A stretch of DNA of 64,000 nucleotides from a virus. The notes beneath the pieces were generated by a model that saw nothing but the letters and a program-made list of their open reading frames with translations, was not told the origin of the DNA and did not search any database. The stretch covers positions 31,033 to 95,032 of IMG/VR virus record IMGVR_UViG_3300045988_078724, one strand, 5' to 3'. The translations under genes were made by a program, and so were the position numbers. This document shows positions 6,024-64,000 of the stretch, in pieces (position 1 is the first letter of the stretch; every line of letters begins with the position of its first letter).

Positions 6024-7286
6024 TTATACGGAAATCCGTACCGGGTTCCACCAAAACCCTCTACCTTTTGGTAACATCGTTACATCAAAGGATTCTTTTT
6101 CCGATTTACGGATGATGTTAAAAGCACCATTGATATCAGCATTAATAATACTACCAGAAGAAGTTTTAAACAATCCTCGTTTAATCCTTCTTCCTTTGTA
6201 AGATTCATGTTTACAAATCCGTTCATTATCCAAAAAGCTACATTTTGAAGTATAAGATTCTTCAACGATCTTAACATTAATACCTTCTAATGTCGCTTTA
6301 TACGATACCATACTGATAAACATATTAAAAGGAATAGATACAAAGTTTTGATTATTTCGTTTTCCGATATTGATCTCTTGTTTCCAGCATTTGTTATGAC
6401 CGATTATGATCGTATTAATACCATTGGAAACTACGTGATTAATCAATATCCTACTTGCCTTATGAAGATAATCCTTGATCTTGTTATTTCTTTTGTTGGT
6501 TAATGACCTGATTTGTTTTGAAATTTGTTTGTTATCTTTTAACTTAGATTTTAAGTATGCTAATTTCTTATTATAATACTGGTTGATAGACTTCAGTGGT
6601 CTACCATTGATGATAAAACAAGAACCGGTGTTTGAAACACAAGAGGCTAAATTATCTAATCCTATGTCGATACCAAGGTAGTTTCCATTATCTGACATAA
6701 GATTCTTTTCCTTCTTATTGTAAACTATTTCAAGAACAATATACCCATTCTTAGGAATGAATCTAAGTTGTTGAATATTTTGTTTATTGGTTCTTGTCGT
6801 GAAAGAGAATTGCTTAGGTAACTTAACAACACCTTGTTTTATCCATTTTTGAGAAAAAGCTATGGTTGTAAAAACAGCAGGAAACAAACCATCTTTGTTA
6901 AGATACTTAGGTATTCTAACAAATTCGGAATACTCACCTCTATTCCTTTTATTTAGAAGATTGAAGAAAGATTTGAAGTTTCTATCAACCATCATCAACA
7001 CTTGTTGAGCAACAGGTGTTGGTAAAGCACGATAGTCAACATCATTTTCTGCTCTTAGTTTCTTTTCAAGAGAATAGTAGTTGAGATATTTGTACTTTAC
7101 AGTATTATCATCCTTGTATTGAAAATAGTGTTGTCTAACAACATACAATCCTTTATTGTATAAGTTTTTACACTTATGCAATAGGTCATAAAGTTCATTA
7201 TAATAAACAGAACTTGGCTTGATTGTATGTTGTTCGACTAATCTCATGACACAAATGTAGGAATTATTATCTATATATAAAAACAA
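6024..7286 (-). CDS. tnpB: TnpB-like RNA-guided nuclease (IS200/IS605 OrfB family), 420 aa
   Basis: C-terminal RuvC-III-like motif [21 protein letters not shown] motif, [10 protein letters not shown] RuvC-I-like motif; paralogous to ORF 17149..18339. Confidence 0.85.
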   Translation of the reverse strand: [420 protein letters not shown]

Positions 7287-7337: not shown

Positions 7338-9596
7338 ATGGGTGTCAAATGTCAGATAGAAAAGAAGGAAAATAAAATAAAACGGGTTAAGGCTCCTAAC
7401 GGGGAGCCTTCCGTTCTTTACGAAAGTGCTTTAAAAGTATTAGGAAACAGCGAGCGGGCTCTTCAGGTATGGGCTAAGGCTTACACTCCTGGTTTTTTGT
7501 CGTATTACGGTCATTGGAATAACCCGGCTCCAGGAGAGATGTTTAATACCGATCCCAATGGTGAACCTCTTTTAGAAGACGTGCTGTCGTATATGAAGCG
7601 TCAGACTTATTTTGCTGATCCTTTAACGGCTCAGGATGTTAAGGATGTAAGGGATTTCCTTTTGTCTACTCATTATTTTTTCAATGCGTCTTCATTGTCT
7701 AATGCTATTCTCTTCGATTTTTATGTAGATGGCAGTTTGATACTGAATGAGCAGAAATTAAGGAGATCCGGTTTGTATGATGAAACAGAAATAAGTCGTA
7801 TTTTATCCGATCCTTCTGTTTTAAACGAGGTTTCGACTTCCATGAGAAAGTTAATAGATTCTTCTATTAACGAACATGATAGGGAAAAAGATAATTATTT
7901 TATGTCTATTGACTATCAGTATGGTCCTATTGTTTACAAGGAGGGAGTGTTTAACCAATTTGGTAAAAAGGTACCATATAATCCTTCTGAGCTTTATTAT
8001 GCTATGCGTAAAACAGTAGCCGGCATAAAAAACTTTTCTGAATTTTCATCTGCTTTTGAATCGTTGAGAAACTCATACCCTGAACTGGTTGAGAAATTCG
8101 TTTCTGATAAAGAATTTGCCGAATCTATGTTTGATGAGTTCTCATCTACGAATAAGATTCCGGTAATAAACATAGAAGGGGATGATGTGGTAGAAGGCAA
8201 GAGAAGATCCTTGTCTAAGCTACAAGATCTGTCTTATTACAATCCTGGCAAAATAGAGTTCCTAAGAGCTCGTATATCAGCTTATTTACATAGGGCTAAT
8301 GCCGACACCGAATCCGACTTAAGAAGCATGATATGGGATATAGAAGAGGCTTGTACGTGGTTTGGCATAGATATAATAGGGACATCGGAAACTTATGATG
8401 GCACAGAAGAATCTTTGAATAAGATAGATAATTTGATGCTGGATCTTGATATTTATGTGGCCAGGCATAATGATGTAAATTATGCTCCAACGCTGGCATC
8501 TTCTATAGATGATATTCTTGGTGATAGCACAGATTATTATTTTGGATTATTACCGGAGTATATGGATAATTTGAATATCGTTTATTCTGAATCCGATATA
8601 GACCCAGTAGAGGCATTTGAGAAACATTCATTGCTTAAGGTAGGAGATAATCTATATCAAAGGATCAGCAAAGATGATCTTAACGAGATGTATCAAATAT
8701 CAACAGTATTAGCCAAGCACAACCTAACTCATTTTTCTACTAAAATATATCCTGAATCTTGTTTTAAGAACGGCGTTTTGGATAAAGAGAAAGTACGGAA
8801 CGTAGATAATAATACGCTCATGGATTCCATTAAAAAATACGTCAGATCGTTCATGGATTCTCAAAACACAGAGGACATGATAATGACCAGGATGGCGTTT
8901 GGGCACCCGGCGGTACTTGACATTTCTTACGCGGATATGGATCGGGAGTATAGTCGATACATGAACAAAAAACAAGATAGCGAAAACCCATTATCCTTAT
9001 TCGATTTATACCAATCTTACCTTGACAACAAACTCCATAAAACAAAATTATATGATAATGCCTATAAGTATCTTGACTTCAAACCTGGTCCATCTTTGGG
9101 CCTTATTTCTGATGATCCTGATATTTTGAAATCAATAGAATTATCTTTATCTGGAAAAGACAGGTTGATGTTGTTTGATTATAGCATGACCAGTACCGAC
9201 CCTTCTTTATCAGAATTGTTTTATTTGGAGAAGTATGACCCTTCGTATGCCGGGAATGATTTTGAACACTATTTTTACACCAGGCACCCGTATTTGTTAA
9301 AAGAAAAATCGGGCCCTAATATCGTAGAGCAAGATGGTGTTATAACAGCCGAAGGTATTTATGATAATTTTATAAGAGTAGGTAATAAGATATGGTCTAA
9401 AGTAAGCGAGAGTAGTTCCGGCTCTATCTACCAAAATCTGACAGGAACCGAATCAGAGGTGAAATACGATTCTACTCAGAAGGCTAAGACGGTAGAAACC
9501 GATTACGCTCCATACCAAAACAGATCTGGCTTGACGCAAGATATGATCGTAAGCAAGTCTGAATTGGATGATCTTAACAAATTAGAATGCAGGTAA
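7338..9596 (+). CDS. hypothetical protein (752 aa)
   Basis: Long uninterrupted ORF with protein-like composition; followed by hairpin+T-run terminator. Confidence 0.6.
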   Translation: MGVKCQIEKKENKIKRVKAPNGEPSVLYESALKVLGNSERALQVWAKAYTPGFLSYYGHWNNPAPGEMFNTDPNGEPLLEDVLSYMKRQTYFADPLTAQDVKDVRDFLLSTHYFFNASSLSNAILFDFYVDGSLILNEQKLRRSGLYDETEISRILSDPSVLNEVSTSMRKLIDSSINEHDREKDNYFMSIDYQYGPIVYKEGVFNQFGKKVPYNPSELYYAMRKTVAGIKNFSEFSSAFESLRNSYPELVEKFVSDKEFAESMFDEFSSTNKIPVINIEGDDVVEGKRRSLSKLQDLSYYNPGKIEFLRARISAYLHRANADTESDLRSMIWDIEEACTWFGIDIIGTSETYDGTEESLNKIDNLMLDLDIYVARHNDVNYAPTLASSIDDILGDSTDYYFGLLPEYMDNLNIVYSESDIDPVEAFEKHSLLKVGDNLYQRISKDDLNEMYQISTVLAKHNLTHFSTKIYPESCFKNGVLDKEKVRNVDNNTLMDSIKKYVRSFMDSQNTEDMIMTRMAFGHPAVLDISYADMDREYSRYMNKKQDSENPLSLFDLYQSYLDNKLHKTKLYDNAYKYLDFKPGPSLGLISDDPDILKSIELSLSGKDRLMLFDYSMTSTDPSLSELFYLEKYDPSYAGNDFEHYFYTRHPYLLKEKSGPNIVEQDGVITAEGIYDNFIRVGNKIWSKVSESSSGSIYQNLTGTESEVKYDSTQKAKTVETDYAPYQNRSGLTQDMIVSKSELDDLNKLECR

Positions 9597-17148: not shown

Positions 17149-18339
17149 ATGAAACTTGTTGAAAGACATATAGTTAAAGACAACTGGTTTGAGGATATAT
17201 GCCTCAAATCTGGTTTGTTGTACAATTATGTTCTTTACAACATTCGTCAAGGAGTCTTTTCTGGTAACTACTTAAAGGAGTTTGATTTATCAAACAAACT
17301 TTGCAAAGAAAACCAATTTGATTTCAGGAATTTACCTAATCATGTTTCACAGCAGGTGATTAAACAGGTATTTAAAAACATAAAATCCTGGATGAGATTA
17401 AAGAAAGATTTTGAAAAGAATCCTTCGAAATACGGTAATCATCGTCCTCATCTTCCTTCGTATAAGAAGGGCAAGAAACAAAACATGGTTGTTTTTACTA
17501 ACTGTGATTGTAGGATAAAGGATGATGGTTATATCCATTTTGTCAAAAACACAATTAAACCGATCAAAACAAATGTAAAGAAAGATGAATTAAAACAAGT
17601 TAGAATCATACCTCAAGCCACCTGTTATGTAGTAGAGGTAGTTTATGAAAGAAAGGAAATTGATCTTGGTTTAGATAAAGACAATTTTCTTTCGATTGAT
17701 TTAGGATTGAATAATTTATGTTCATGTATTAGCAATGTAGGATTAATTCCTTTCATTGTAAACGGACGGATTATGAAATCATTTAATCAATGGTACAATA
17801 AGAAGAAAGCTAAGTTGATGTCTTTTGTTGGTGATAGAGGATCTTCAAATAGGATAAGAAGAATCACTTTGTTTAGAAATTGTTGGATAGAAGACAAGTT
17901 GCATAAGATAAGCAGATATATTGTCAACTTCTGTAGATCAAACAACATAGGAACAATCATCATCGGATTAAATAAGGAATGGAAACAGGAAATCAATATT
18001 GGTAGGCGAAATAACCAACATTTTGTTTCTATTCCTCATTCAAAGTTAATAGATAAGATTGTTTACAAAGCAAAGTTATTAGGAATCAATGTTGTTATTC
18101 ATGAAGAATCCTATACATCAAAGATAGATCATCTTGCTTTTGAACCTCTAAAGAAACAGGAATCCTACTTAGGAAAAAGAAAGAAACGTGGATTGTTTCA
18201 AAGTTCAATTGGAAAACTGATCAATGCAGATATTAATGGATCAATTGGAATAGCAAGAAAAGTAATTGGTGATTCTTTTATTGGAAAGATAATCGATAGT
18301 GGATTTGTGTTTAATCCAATTAGAGTAAATACTTTGTGA
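17149..18339 (+). CDS. tnpB: TnpB-like RNA-guided nuclease (IS200/IS605 OrfB family), 396 aa, diverged paralog of 6024..7286
   Basis: [10 protein letters not shown] (RuvC-I), [49 protein letters not shown] (RuvC-III); ~50% identity by eye to TnpB-1. Confidence 0.85.
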   Translation: [396 protein letters not shown]

Positions 18340-30893: not shown

Positions 30894-31250
30894 TCATATT
30901 ATTCCTTCCAAATTTACTTTAATAGAACCATTTATGGTTTTAATGCTCCCATCTATGGTTGAAATCACATCATCTATATCATTTATAATGCCTTCCATGT
31001 CATCAACCACCTCCTCCATATCAGTTACAGCCCGATCTGATTCCCAATATCTTTCTGAGTCTTGTAACGATTCCGGTATATTATCTCTCGCCTCCGTCTC
31101 TTCATCTAAAATCATATCAATATCATCTTTGGCTGAATTTATGTTGTGCTTTAACTCCGATAACTTTGATTTGATGTATTCAAAATCTGTTTTATACTTA
31201 TTTACATTGTTAATAACATCTAATATTCTTTTTCTTCTCTTGTTGTTCAT
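30894..31250 (-). CDS. acidic coiled-coil protein (118 aa)
   Basis: ORF, Asp/Glu/Ile-rich. Confidence 0.4.
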   Translation of the reverse strand: MNNKRRKRILDVINNVNKYKTDFEYIKSKLSELKHNINSAKDDIDMILDEETEARDNIPESLQDSERYWESDRAVTDMEEVVDDMEGIINDIDDVISTIDGSIKTINGSIKVNLEGII

Positions 31251-54134: not shown

Positions 54135-54149
54135 AGTTTTATGATTATT

Positions 54150-55385
54150 TAACCAACAAAACCACCATACTTTAGAAGGTAGATGAATTGGTTTGATTAA
54201 TTTTGAATCAAAATTACAGATAAAAAAAATGATTTCATACAAATACAACATATACCATTCCAGGAAAACGAAGTATCTTGTCAAGATGCTTCGTGAATGT
54301 TGTTTTGTATGGAATCATGCGTTAGCTCTACAACGTAGGTATCACAAACTGTTTGGGAAATATATCTCAGTTGGCAAAATGAAGAAGTATTTTGCCAAAA
54401 GAATTAAAAGAAATCTTCTTCATTCTCAAACAACACAAGAAATACTTGAACGTCTTGATGAATCTTATAATCGTTTCTTTAAGAAGTTAGCTAAACGACC
54501 TCCTAAGTTTAAATCACCGGAGAAATTCAACTCTTTTGTTTTCAAACAAGGTGGGTTTACCCTAAATGGTAATAGTCTAACAATTAACAAAGGAAAGAAA
54601 CGATTTAGATTTTCATACAGTAGAGTCTACGAAGGTAATGTTAAACAAATTAGAATAGTTAGAGAAACCTGTTCACGTTTTAGTTTGATTGTAGTTACAG
54701 ATCATAATCCTATAAGCTCTTATAGAAAGACACATGATGGTGCATCTATCGGATTGGATTTTGGACTAAAAACTTATTTAACTAAAAGCGATGGTAGCAA
54801 AATTGATTCTCCTCTATTCTTCAAACAATATCAAAATAAGATTAGAAAACTAAACAAACGGTTTTCTAATACAAAGAAAGGATCCAATAATAGAAGAAGA
54901 AAACTGTTTGAACTCCAACAAACGTATCGTAAAATAAACGATCTTCGATCGGATTTTCAATGGGGATTAGCACACCAGTTATGCAAACAGTATGATTATA
55001 TTTTTATTGAAGATCTAAACATTGAAGGAATGAAACGTTTGTGGGGAAAGAAAGTTTCCGATCTTAGTCATTCTTCTTTTATTGATAAACTAATGTATGT
55101 TTCTTCAAAGTATGGAGTAACGATACACAAGATTGACAAATGGTATCCTTCTTCCAAAACTTGCGAATGTGGCTGCATTAATAAAGGTCTGTCGTTACGC
55201 GACCGCACGTGGGTGTGCCCAGCGTGCGGCGCAATTAACGACCGTGATGCTCTTGCAGCCCGTAATATACTTCGGAAGGGCATTTCCGAATTGGAGAGCA
55301 AGAGTAATTCCAGCGATAGCAACATCGGGGTTTCTTGCGCTTGTATCCAAGAATCCCATTTGCTTTAGCGATGGGAGTATGTCAA
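54150..55385 (+). mobile_element. IS200/IS605-family TnpB-only element 3 (no tnpA)
   Basis: LE-side hairpin ggtttgattaattttgaatcaaaatt (contains TTGAT); right end defined by loss of similarity to the orphan copy after ...gagtatgtcaa (55385). Confidence 0.5.
54229..55368 (+). CDS. tnpB: TnpB-like RNA-guided nuclease with C-terminal zinc finger
   Basis: CECGCINKG...WVCPACGAINDRDALAARNILRKG (zinc finger + RuvC-III); ATG 54229 preferred over listed TTG 54193. Confidence 0.85.
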   Translation: MISYKYNIYHSRKTKYLVKMLRECCFVWNHALALQRRYHKLFGKYISVGKMKKYFAKRIKRNLLHSQTTQEILERLDESYNRFFKKLAKRPPKFKSPEKFNSFVFKQGGFTLNGNSLTINKGKKRFRFSYSRVYEGNVKQIRIVRETCSRFSLIVVTDHNPISSYRKTHDGASIGLDFGLKTYLTKSDGSKIDSPLFFKQYQNKIRKLNKRFSNTKKGSNNRRRKLFELQQTYRKINDLRSDFQWGLAHQLCKQYDYIFIEDLNIEGMKRLWGKKVSDLSHSSFIDKLMYVSSKYGVTIHKIDKWYPSSKTCECGCINKGLSLRDRTWVCPACGAINDRDALAARNILRKGISELESKSNSSDSNIGVSCACIQESHLL

Positions 55386-55405
55386 TAATCTACAGTTACT
55401 ATCTT
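55244..55405 (+). ncRNA. omegaRNA (reRNA) scaffold of TnpB-3 plus candidate guide
   Basis: 3' end of tnpB through right end; ~130 nt repeated with compensatory changes at 61837-61967; guide candidate taatctacagttactatctt (55386-55405). Confidence 0.45.
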
Positions 55406-60699: not shown

Positions 60700-61509
60700 T
60701 TAAATACTTAACTCTTCAATGGTCAAGCCTTTTTCTTTTGCCCATTTTAACATTGCGCATAATTCTGTTTCTGACTTATATTTCGGATCACGCCACGCCC
60801 ATCCGTATTTATCCAGAACATGGTGATATAATTCGTCGGCTTCTGCTGTATGCACGTCATTGAATAAATACTCCGAACCTTCTGGTATAAGCGTTTCTGT
60901 TGTTGCGAAATCATGATATTGTAGATAATGGAAGGCGTTCAATACTACACCATGCCACGCATCTTCAGCTACGAACCCAAATTCTTTTACAAAAGCCAAA
61001 GATAGATACATATTTAATAGCACTGCCGGATCATATCCTGAATTTGGATTCTTTTCTATTATCTCTTTCTCAAATTCCTTTAGATTTTCAGGCCCGAAAA
61101 ATATGTAACCCTGAACTGATTTATAATTTACCTCAGCATATTTTTTACACCTATCATCATCAATGATCTTACCAATGTTGGATAACATCGCCTGTCGCCA
61201 CCCATCACAGAACTCCACCTCTACCTCCATCCAATCAGTACCATAGTTATACTCTCTTGGGTGTCCGACTGATGTTACCTTTATATCTTTTACACCATAT
61301 ACTAAAAGACGTTTTTTAACCTCGTCCGCCCATTCTTGCACATAAGGCATGAACGCATTACAATAAGAATCAAAATCAAAATCCGATTCCTCTTCATATT
61401 CCGGCATCTCATCATATTTCTGTGAAAAGAAATGACGCGGGTCTGCTACTGTTTCATAAAAACTTACGTTAATGAAACAAAATTCGTTGGTTGTCGTTTT
61501 TAATATCAT
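60700..61509 (-). CDS. hypothetical protein (269 aa)
   Basis: ORF. Confidence 0.5.
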   Translation of the reverse strand: MILKTTTNEFCFINVSFYETVADPRHFFSQKYDEMPEYEEESDFDFDSYCNAFMPYVQEWADEVKKRLLVYGVKDIKVTSVGHPREYNYGTDWMEVEVEFCDGWRQAMLSNIGKIIDDDRCKKYAEVNYKSVQGYIFFGPENLKEFEKEIIEKNPNSGYDPAVLLNMYLSLAFVKEFGFVAEDAWHGVVLNAFHYLQYHDFATTETLIPEGSEYLFNDVHTAEADELYHHVLDKYGWAWRDPKYKSETELCAMLKWAKEKGLTIEELSI

Positions 61510-61760
61510 AACTTTTTGTATTTACGTACATTTTTCTTGCCATAGAATCTACACATGGCACGAATCTGACTATAAAATACTTTTGTCCTCCTGGCCTCAA
61601 AGTATTTAAACATTTCTTCATTCTTTGTTTCCCACACGTAATCCGTTTGAGAACTCATATGATTTTTATCCTTGCGTGAATAATGGTAATATGATACCAC
61701 AACTCGTTTCGCACCATTCCTTACAGGTACGATATTCACATCTATGTTATTATCTGTCAT
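61506..61760 (-). CDS. hypothetical protein (84 aa)
   Basis: ORF. Confidence 0.45.
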   Translation of the reverse strand: MTDNNIDVNIVPVRNGAKRVVVSYYHYSRKDKNHMSSQTDYVWETKNEEMFKYFEARRTKVFYSQIRAMCRFYGKKNVRKYKKL

Positions 61761-61836
61761 CTTATTATTGTTTTATGTTATTTAATGGTAATACTGATCC
61801 CATTTATGTGTCAGATGATAATTAAACATTATATTT

Positions 61837-61987
61837 GCCCTGTCTTGCGACCTCGGAAGGGCATTTCCGAGTTGGAAAGTACGGGTGATTCCAACGATTG
61901 TAAAACCGGGGGTTCCGTACGTTTGTATCCAAGAATCCCGTTTGCTTTAGCGATGGGAGTATGTCAAGCATTATACAAATACAAAGA
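61837..61987 (+). ncRNA. orphan omegaRNA-like element (TnpB-3 right-end/omegaRNA scaffold copy without nuclease gene) plus distinct candidate guide
   Basis: ~130 nt alignable to 55258-55385 incl. cggaagggcatttccga, tttgtatccaagaatccc, tttgctttagcgatgggagtatgtcaa; stem halves gcaaga/tcttgc replaced by gtacgg/ccgtac; downstream 20 nt differ. Confidence 0.5.
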
Positions 61988-62070
61988 GCGCATACCTTCA
62001 CAGGCCGGCGCTCCTTTCAATAAAAATGAAAAAACTAACATTACATAAACATATTGTTTTCTGCTCTTTA

Positions 62071-62304
62071 TTACAATACTTTTGTCCCACAATTGTTATA
62101 TCGTCCGTACTCTTTTTTCGTATCATTCAAGATTTCAAACACCATCTTCTTATGATCTTTGTTTGGTAACTTGTCTTTAACAGCCGATATCACGCTCGCT
62201 ATAGACGTAAAGCCTGAATCTGTTATTGAACACAACAACAAACCTCTGTCGTCGTCTGTGCTTATCGCTGACGCCTTTATAATATCATTCTTATATATTC
62301 TCAT
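62071..62304 (-). CDS. hypothetical protein (77 aa)
   Basis: ORF. Confidence 0.45.
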   Translation of the reverse strand: MRIYKNDIIKASAISTDDDRGLLLCSITDSGFTSIASVISAVKDKLPNKDHKKMVFEILNDTKKEYGRYNNCGTKVL

Positions 62305-62479: not shown

Positions 62480-62794
62480 CTATTCTAACTCTTTTATAAT
62501 ATCTTTCACAATATTCAGCCGCACCTCCTTCGTTTCTGGACTAAGACAACCAAACCACCCATAAAACGTTCTTGTTTCCTCTGGTTCTGTGGCCATACTT
62601 ATCTTCTCCTCCAATTCCGGGAAATATATTCTCACCATTTCGTCTGAACGAAACCCATAGATATTTTTATGTTTTTTGAAATACATAAACACTACATTTC
62701 TTAACGCAACACATATGTATTCCCCATCCTCTTGCCTATCAATCATCTCATATACCTTTTTCCATATGAATAATCGCTCTTCTTTTGTAAACAT
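62480..62794 (-). CDS. hypothetical protein (104 aa)
   Basis: ORF. Confidence 0.45.
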   Translation of the reverse strand: MFTKEERLFIWKKVYEMIDRQEDGEYICVALRNVVFMYFKKHKNIYGFRSDEMVRIYFPELEEKISMATEPEETRTFYGWFGCLSPETKEVRLNIVKDIIKELE

Positions 62795-63746: not shown

Positions 63747-63817
63747 GTTGTTTATGTTTTAATTGTTATACATTCCGATTACTACTAATCTATAGAATAT
63801 AGTTTTCAACTCCCAAC

Positions 63818-64000
63818 CTATTGAATTTTGTAGAATAAACTCACATTATGCTGTTTTAAAGCACTGTAAGTCTTAATTTTGTAGGAAAACCCTACATAAC
63901 GCTGTTTTAAAACGCTGATCTGTTGAATTTTGTTGGAAAACCCTACATAACGCTGTTTTAAAACGCTGATCTGTTGAATTTTGTTGGAAAACCCTACATA
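63818..64000. repeat. tandem direct repeat array, 51-bp unit, >=3 copies, truncated by window end
   Basis: unit ctgttgaattttgttggaaaaccctacataacgctgttttaaaacgctgat repeated exactly 63920-63970 and 63971-64000(partial), with degenerate copies upstream; each unit has palindrome gttttaaaac flanked by acgctg direct repeats. Confidence 0.7.

Follow-up and report, generated by a model that had tools for sequence, protein, structure and literature searches.

We describe a gene-less transposon derivative in a 64,000-nt stretch of viral DNA, positions 31,033 to 95,032 of the IMG/VR record IMGVR_UViG_3300045988_078724 (the whole stretch is called the window below, and coordinates without a locus label refer to it). 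A preliminary description, made from the letters of the window alone, had noticed near 61837-61967 a second, orphan copy of the omegaRNA scaffold of a TnpB-encoding element, tnpB-3. Our results identify this orphan as part of a 191-bp insertion at 61777-61967, almost certainly a non-autonomous derivative of the IS200/IS605 (TnpB/omegaRNA) family in an epsilon crAss-like phage of the gut. We call it the mini element. Our preferred reading, to which we assign a probability of roughly 0.55, is that it is a PATE-like, guide-only IS200/IS605 element whose omegaRNA guides TnpB supplied in trans to the empty site of the element itself.

Boundaries and anatomy of the insertion

The window is about 90% identical to the phage csAssE-Sib (OR575929), also written CrAssE-Sib, which belongs to the epsilon crAss-like phages and carries two TnpB genes (PMC11054128). 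The two genes that flank the orphan are separated by 119 nt in csAssE-Sib and by 310 nt in the window. The csAssE-Sib allele reads ...TTGTTTTAT|GCATTATACAAATAC..., and the 191 extra bases of the window lie exactly at the bar. The same seamless empty site, TTGTTTTAT|GCATTATA (TTTTAT|GCATTATA), is found in csAssE-Sib and in 102 IMG/VR contigs. The inserted unit is therefore 191 bp long and starts 72 nt before the part recognized in the preliminary description, which identified the scaffold and right end correctly and missed the left-end segment. The mini element lies in the gap between two minus-strand genes, has no target duplication and, like tnpB-3, sits 3' of TTAT. Its left end directly follows TTTAT and begins GTTATTTAATGG, compared to GATTATTTAACC in the left ends that we call type A; the two termini are identical at 9 of 12 positions, immediately behind the transposon-adjacent motif (TAM). 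The left-end segment is 100% identical across all copies at this site (site 1). The features of the locus are as follows.

61773-61776 (+): TAM TTAT (TTTAT at 61772-61776), abutting the insertion on its 5' side, as defined by the empty alleles and the motif WTTAT of type-A insertions
61777-61848 (+): left-end-derived segment, 72 bp, within the 191 bp missing from the empty alleles
61830-61837 (+): promoter-like box TATATTTG, 15 nt upstream of helix 1 of the scaffold, inherited from the tnpB promoter region
about 61838-61848 (+): deletion junction with the 3' end of tnpB, inside the left-end segment
61849-61967 (+): complete omegaRNA scaffold, equal to the right end, 119 nt, ending ...GTCAA; 131 bits with the covariance model
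61968-61987 (+): guide region GCATTATACAAATACAAAGA, which is flanking DNA and the target in the empty allele; same as the sequence after TTTTAT in the empty alleles
61506-61760 (-): flanking phage gene, 84 aa, with its start codon 16 nt from the insertion point; homologue annotated in csAssE-Sib
62071-62304 (-): flanking phage gene on the guide side, 77 aa; homologue annotated in csAssE-Sib
54143-55385 (+): full-length tnpB-3 element, candidate nuclease donor, with TAM TTAT at 54139-54142, coding sequence at 54229-55368 and scaffold at 55268-55385
55386-55405 (+): guide region TAATCTACAGTTACTATCTT of the tnpB-3 omegaRNA, adjoining the right end; follows TTTTAT in empty alleles

The orphan scaffold at 61849-61967 (+) aligns end to end with 55268-55385 (+), which comprises the last ~100 nt of tnpB-3 and its right end. 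Nineteen of about 120 columns differ, corresponding to about 84% identity, and the window holds two occurrences of the 27-mer TTTGCTTTAGCGATGGGAGTATGTCAA and no more, where none is expected from 100 shuffles. The preliminary description had reported that the similarity ends exactly at the right end and that the next 20 nt differ; direct reading and alignment both confirm this, with the last shared bases being ...GTCAA, and the peptide strings quoted there are also correct. It was likewise right that no nuclease open reading frame accompanies the orphan: tblastn finds no TnpB upstream, and the 87-aa and 59-aa open reading frames that overlap the orphan have no Pfam match. The proposal that the orphan is a copy of the tnpB-3 right end must be rejected, since it comes with a left end and a TAM site of its own and its scaffold represents a separate lineage, which is no more similar to tnpB-3 (84% identity) than to other full-length scaffolds (best 88%, among the matches listed). 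The orphan has no relation to the 3' ends of the other two tnpB genes in the window, tnpB-1 and tnpB-2. A full-length parent with the left end of the mini element was sought by local BLAST and by an IMG/VR scan with a 20-mer from the left end, and both returned site-1 copies only.

The tnpB-3 element also has a seamless empty site, CATAGTTTTAT|TAATCTACAG (TTTTAT|TAATCTACAG), in locus L011 and 10 other loci, with no target duplication. This delimits the element as 54143-55385, beginning GATTATTTAACC. TnpB-3 matches Pfam OrfB_IS605 and the Cas12f1-like TNB domain, and an alignment to ISDra2-type TnpB structures shows that the RuvC D/E/D triad (in the motifs GLDFG, IEDLN and NDRD) and the zinc finger are conserved. 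To judge from its sequence, TnpB-3 is thus an apparently intact partner nuclease. No tnpA was found in the 64-kb window. Three tnpB genes are present, at 6024-7286 (-), 17149-18339 (+) and 54229-55368 (+). The first two belong to other lineages and also match OrfB_IS605 and the TNB domain; in total the phage carries three different TnpB elements and the guide-only copy.

The TnpB-3 family and its omegaRNA scaffold

An exact search of IMG/VR with an 18-mer from helix 1 of the scaffold yields at least 120 loci, and all family counts given below apply among the matches listed. Full-length relatives of TnpB-3 (tblastn; 69-94% identical) occupy at least 45 sites, each with a different 20-nt flank. 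A Y1 TnpA is encoded divergently upstream of tnpB in at least 11 loci (PF01797, E=1.3e-39 in L003), and these autonomous relatives are L003, L012, L025, L063, L065, L066, L072, L081, L085, L105 and L119. In the tnpA-bearing elements the left end is preceded by TTAC and contains an obvious hairpin, AGCCCCTCTTTTTAAAGAGGGG. For type A, to which the left end of tnpB-3 belongs, at least 12 distinct sites have WTTAT in front of the element, and the two groups together give a family motif TTAY. Right ends in the family finish ...TCAA. WTTAT, in place of TTAC, precedes tnpB-only relatives, whose left end differs from that of the tnpA-bearing elements, and TnpBs 73-94% identical are found behind either TTAC or TTAT. 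A single contig can carry up to three family copies (L067, L084 and L102 are on one).

The family is seen in crAss-like phage contigs only. When 185,579 species genomes of bacteria and archaea were scanned for exact matches to the helix-1 18-mer, a search that could miss diverged copies, 24 hits were obtained, all attributable to chance and lacking the rest of the scaffold, and no host or bacterial source was identified. The TnpB-3 family therefore looks like an insertion sequence family living in phages, and an IS605-like family at 45 or more sites in epsilon crAss-like phages is unusual for phage genomes.

We built a covariance model and an alignment from 62 distinct scaffolds of the family. 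Applied to the 64 kb, the model finds two copies only, that of tnpB-3 (141.6 bits) and the orphan (131.0 bits), both spanning model positions 1-118, with the next hit at 13 bits; this bears out the earlier claim of a second scaffold copy. The RNAalifold consensus comprises 35 pairs in five helices, and compensatory double changes occur at 15 of these pairs. In the alignment 98.4% of the cells are paired, none of 500 shuffles is as good, and the number of compensated pairs does not exceed 5 in slid controls. Helix 5 (CCCnnnnGCTTTAGCnnnGGG) is the subterminal hairpin of the right end, with 5 of its 8 pairs covarying, and almost all copies finish GTATGTCAA. The invariance of helix 1 in the alignment is an artefact, because the loci were retrieved with helix 1 itself; helix-1 variants and shortened right ends appeared when a 3' pattern was used as a control. 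Minimum free energy folds of single sequences are not significant by themselves (z from -0.8 to -2.4), so the structure rests on the alignment. Rfam gives no match in the whole window at gathering thresholds, and none in 61500-62300 at E<=1.

The orphan forms 34 of the 35 consensus pairs. Compared to tnpB-3, four pairs are fully compensated: 4:23 at the base of helix 1, where U-A becomes C-G, and 32:72, 34:70 and 36:68 in helix 3, where GCAAGA..TCTTGC becomes GTACGG..CCGTAC. Apart from these there are one G.U pair, one mismatch in the distal hairpin and changes outside the pairs. The preliminary description had spotted the paired change in helix 3, which is real, and took it as an argument against decay. 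That argument does not hold. Full-length tnpA+tnpB elements (L003 and others) have helix 3 in the GTACGG/CCGTAC form as well, which means that the stem of the orphan was inherited and is no proof of selection on this locus. The covariation proves that the RNA of the family is structured, and not that the orphan locus is under selection. The lesson for method is that two covarying copies are no evidence of selection on a locus before their variants have been placed within the family.

Apart from this, the 62-variant alignment provides a covariation map together with naturally minimized promoter-omegaRNA cassettes of ~140 nt, which may be useful for TnpB engineering. Two further observations concern the variability of scaffolds. 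The G run between helices 4 and 3 (61908-61912; L010, L233, L236 and L237) varies from 4 to 7 G among copies, possibly through slippage or assembly noise. At the site AGAGGATCTAAT (L004, L016, L069, L109 and others) full-length elements carry different scaffold lineages, with helix 3 reading GCAAGAG, GTAAGAG or GTATGGG, and the element is more diverse than its flanks; this mixture suggests exchange between elements or repeated insertion.

Population evidence and competing explanations

Alleles at the site of the mini element were collected by two IMG/VR scans, one with the left-end 20-mer for filled sites and one with the empty junction for empty sites. The 20-mer retrieves 23 contigs, all at this site, and the empty junction retrieves 102, so that about 18% of the sampled alleles are filled. 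Counting the window there are 24 filled copies, 21 of them intact. For 20 copies with adequate flanks we compared diversity inside and outside the element. Within it only 3 of 193 columns vary, corresponding to 0.34% pairwise diversity (~99.7% identity), compared to 3.6% in the 200 nt upstream and about 20% in the 200 nt downstream. In a subset of eight phages, adjacent 50-nt windows diverge by 1-16%, and the element by 0.2%. Across the family, scaffold diversity is 0-0.5% among gene-less copies and 0-1.2% among full-length ones, and the tnpB bodies of full-length elements differ by 2-4%.

Presence of the element does not follow its surroundings. At least six upstream haplotypes carry filled alleles, and four of these haplotypes are found with empty alleles too. 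At the nearest polymorphisms, 15 nt upstream and 9 nt downstream, both alleles occur with and without the element, and the distribution of an A/G variant within the element does not match the similarity of the flanks. To produce this pattern, the element must have been gained or lost precisely and repeatedly, or recombination must have occurred within about 15 nt; a homing or a precisely excising element would give such a pattern. With about 20 filled, 3 decayed and 102 empty alleles at one site, the population constitutes a ready-made set for studying TnpB homing between co-infecting phages.

The scaffold has been separated from its gene more than once. At least five gene-less derivatives that retain it arose independently: the mini element; the L015 group at site 2 (L015, L020, L027 and L061), which has the motif TTAC and a left end with a hairpin; the L039 group at site 3, in which a type-A left end is joined to helix 1 just before the position of the ATG; L265; and L115. 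The last derives from a full-length copy, which L030 and L036 retain at this site, and its 1,374-bp deletion also took the left end and 250 nt of flank. In all five the right-hand junction falls about 2-25 nt 5' of helix 1, among roughly 1,040 nt possible. Such a recurrent junction suggests selection for a minimal omegaRNA gene.

The mechanism that we propose would begin with the internal deletion of a full-length copy at this site, leaving a guide-only element that has since persisted. A short plus-strand transcript would start near 61845-61852, driven by the retained TATATTTG box. We take this box to be a Bacteroidota-type -7 promoter-like element (consensus TAnnTTTG); the same motif, in the form TTATATTTG, precedes the tnpB ATG by ~24-33 nt in several types of left end. 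The transcript would fold into the family scaffold and read on into the flank as a guide of ~16-20 nt, a length assumed from known TnpB systems. A family TnpB, either TnpB-3 in the same genome or that of a co-infecting phage, would be loaded with this RNA in trans, and the complex would cut empty alleles (TTAT followed by GCATTATACAAATACAAAGA), whether in related phages or in a copy that had lost the element through TnpA excision. Recombinational repair from a filled allele would then restore or spread the mini element, making it a parasite of the nuclease of full-length elements. The guide is in fact the flank of the element itself and equals the TAM-adjacent sequence of the empty allele in csAssE-Sib and the 102 contigs. 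A trans-acting guide had been among the roles suggested in the preliminary description and is the most plausible mode of action, as the mini element and tnpB-3 share TTAT and the TnpB-3 triad is intact; the part of that suggestion in which TnpB-3 is retargeted does not stand, the guide being the element's own flank. For the narrower claim that the RNA works as a guide in trans, the sequence evidence would justify even odds at best. If it does, an RNA-guided nuclease and its guide would here exist naturally as separate selfish elements in a virus population.

A bolder extension, which we consider doubtful, is that guide-only elements of this kind act as natural 'split' RNA-guided gene drives, cutting the genomes of rival phages in which the insertion is missing. 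They may consist of a promoter and an omegaRNA only and hijack TnpB from full-length elements in the same or a co-infecting phage. If true, a rival would be converted or a competitor eliminated, the recurrent loss of the tnpB reading frame would reflect selection for hyperparasitic guides, and certain variants of the target would be drive-resistance alleles. Guide positions 9 and 15 (61976 and 61982) are each polymorphic, C or T, among the empty alleles (L125-L224), and the double variant GCATTATATAAATATAAAGA occurs in five empty alleles and in no filled one. That these variants are cleavage-resistant alleles might be proposed, as speculation.

Several findings weigh against the preferred reading. 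Many of them fit an inert relic instead, in which one full-length insertion lost tnpB and the remnant, with no functional RNA, has been passed on and reassorted by ordinary recombination among phages. All 24 copies occupy a single site, with no sign of transposition as a mini element, and three have lost the scaffold through further deletion (L225 and L226 keep the left end only; in L227 the deletion reaches the neighboring gene). In the distal hairpin (helix 4) an A.C mismatch stands uncompensated in most copies, and the copy in L236 keeps G-C at this place. Family tnpB genes are found on 3 of 23 contigs with the mini element and on 13 of 80 with the empty site, which is no enrichment in a scan that recovered ~40% of known copies. 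The first ~100 nt of intergenic DNA downstream of the element are also rather conserved. Elsewhere in the family, breakpoints inside the scaffold occur and leave shortened right ends (L267/L269/L270 and L268, from the control scan with the 3' pattern). In addition, L115 keeps its scaffold without left end or promoter, so the recurrent junction could reflect a deletion hotspot at the GC-rich hairpin of helix 1 rather than selection. Other points on the same side are of a different nature. In L011 and L236 the mini element is present and the tnpB-3 site is empty. The left end contains no convincing subterminal hairpin (DNA fold of -2.3 kcal/mol, z=+0.3). The promoter role of the TATATTTG box is inferred from the motif match, a generic scan for sigma-70 promoters and terminators stays at background level with no plus-strand terminator found, and the predicted RNA is antisense to the surrounding minus-strand operon. 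The tnpB-3 site could not serve as a linkage marker for the mini element, as the region is too variable, with 12 loci only and other genes at this place in csAssE-Sib.

We nevertheless regard the relic as unlikely, though as an alternative to be taken seriously. A passively inherited remnant does not readily account for 0.34% diversity over 193 nt between flanks that differ by 3.6-20%, nor for presence and absence being uncoupled from polymorphisms 9 and 15 nt away, which calls for recurrent precise gain or loss. The scaffold differs by at least 12% from every sampled full-length relative and yet has 34 of 35 pairs intact, and it is as conserved as the scaffolds of functional full-length elements.

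It is improbable that excision and not homing explains the pattern. The element would then be ancestral, and the 102 empty alleles would have arisen by repeated precise excision by Y1 TnpA in trans while the guide RNA stayed idle. The empty sites are indeed seamless, autonomous tnpA+tnpB relatives circulate in the same phage population, and filled and empty alleles share flank haplotypes. However, the mini element shows no convincing counterpart of the hairpin seen in tnpA-associated left ends, the window has no tnpA, and an old element would need purifying selection to remain 99.7% identical. Less credible still is co-option as a cis element or regulatory RNA, that is, a promoter, a terminator, an antisense regulator of the adjacent minus-strand genes or a decoy titrating TnpB-3. 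The position 16 nt upstream of the start codon of the 84-aa gene, the strong conservation and the antisense orientation to the operon would suit such a role, but about 80% of the related phages do without the element, the scaffold is kept in the form of TnpB-bound omegaRNAs, and the generic promoter and terminator scan found no specific regulatory signal. That the orphan provides TnpB-3 with a second guide against a host or foreign target unrelated to its own site can practically be dismissed: the guide is unlike that of tnpB-3, but it is flanking DNA, identical to the empty allele beside TTAT, and does not recur anywhere else in the window with up to three mismatches allowed.

Relation to known systems and further observations

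IS608/IS605 elements of Helicobacter pylori insert 3' of a 4-nt motif (TTAC in IS608) that abuts the left end. Their right end is TCAA, they produce no target duplication and excise seamlessly, and they encode a Y1 TnpA and a TnpB that overlaps the right end. We take the anatomy of the TnpB-3 family to be the same. The likeness extends to the position of the motif (TTAY here), the TCAA end, the absence of duplication and the Y1 TnpA of the autonomous relatives. Unlike IS608/IS605, the mini element lacks both genes, tnpB-3 lacks tnpA, and the family is seen in crAss-like phage contigs only.

Guide genes apart from nuclease genes have precedents. Altae-Tran et al. 2021 reportedly found standalone omegaRNA loci that are used in trans by IscB, IsrB or TnpB and are present in multiple copies in a bacterial chromosome. 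In those loci and in the mini element alike the guide gene lies apart from the nuclease gene, but the mini element is a single, polymorphic viral locus. Virus-borne mini-CRISPR arrays are said by Medvedeva et al. 2019 to act in conflicts between viruses. As with the mini element, the virus carries only the guide part and related viruses are the predicted targets; unlike the arrays, the mini element has no repeats or spacers and its guide is fixed by the insertion site.

The closest comparison is with the PATE-like elements of Geobacillus stearothermophilus (Meers et al. 2023, PMC10055086), which encode omegaRNAs that need TnpB in trans. Like the mini element they have no protein gene, possess transposon ends and a complete omegaRNA, take their guide from the right-hand flank and require TnpB from elsewhere. 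The mini element differs from them in residing in a phage genome, in occupying one site (24 copies), in having arisen apparently by deletion in place, and in its left end without a clear hairpin; its population pattern suggests homology-based copying rather than transposition by TnpA. Dispersed multiple copies of the type known from miniature inverted-repeat transposable elements and PATE were not found: all 24 copies share one site, and the window contains two scaffold copies. ORF-less group I introns and 'collaborative homing' in T-even phages offer an analogy in the way of working, since the mini element, too, would be a nuclease-less insertion copied into the empty alleles of co-infecting phages with the help of a nuclease encoded elsewhere (PMC13565253). 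The mini element differs from these introns in that an RNA guide and a TAM replace recognition by a protein and no splicing is involved. According to the same review, co-infecting phages or plasmids can be the recipients in 'non-restorative homing' (PMC13565253). The guide RNAs of TldR, a nuclease-dead TnpB (PMC10705468), resemble the mini element as TnpB-family guide RNAs away from active transposition. A TldR-type system was rejected here, as TnpB-3 keeps its catalytic triad and the guide matches its own insertion site and not a promoter elsewhere. Guide-only TnpB elements are already known from bacteria, and the phage case adds a member of that kind; in the literature searched we found no paper describing them in phages.

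Three further observations concern the surroundings of these elements. In L059 a deletion runs from exactly 10 nt past the right end of the mini element, within the guide/target, into the homologue of the window gene at 62480-62794. In L268 (~9050-9200) the 3' hairpin region of the right end is inverted and duplicated, with TTGACATACTCCCATCACTAAAGCAAATGGGATTCTTG adjoining a 3' fragment of the right end. Finally, unrelated to the mini element, tandem repeats with a 51-nt period (GTTTTAAAACGCTG...TTGAATTTTGTTGGAAAACCCTACATAACGCT) occupy 63802-64000 and are cut off by the end of the window; they could mark a genome end or an origin, or be regulatory.

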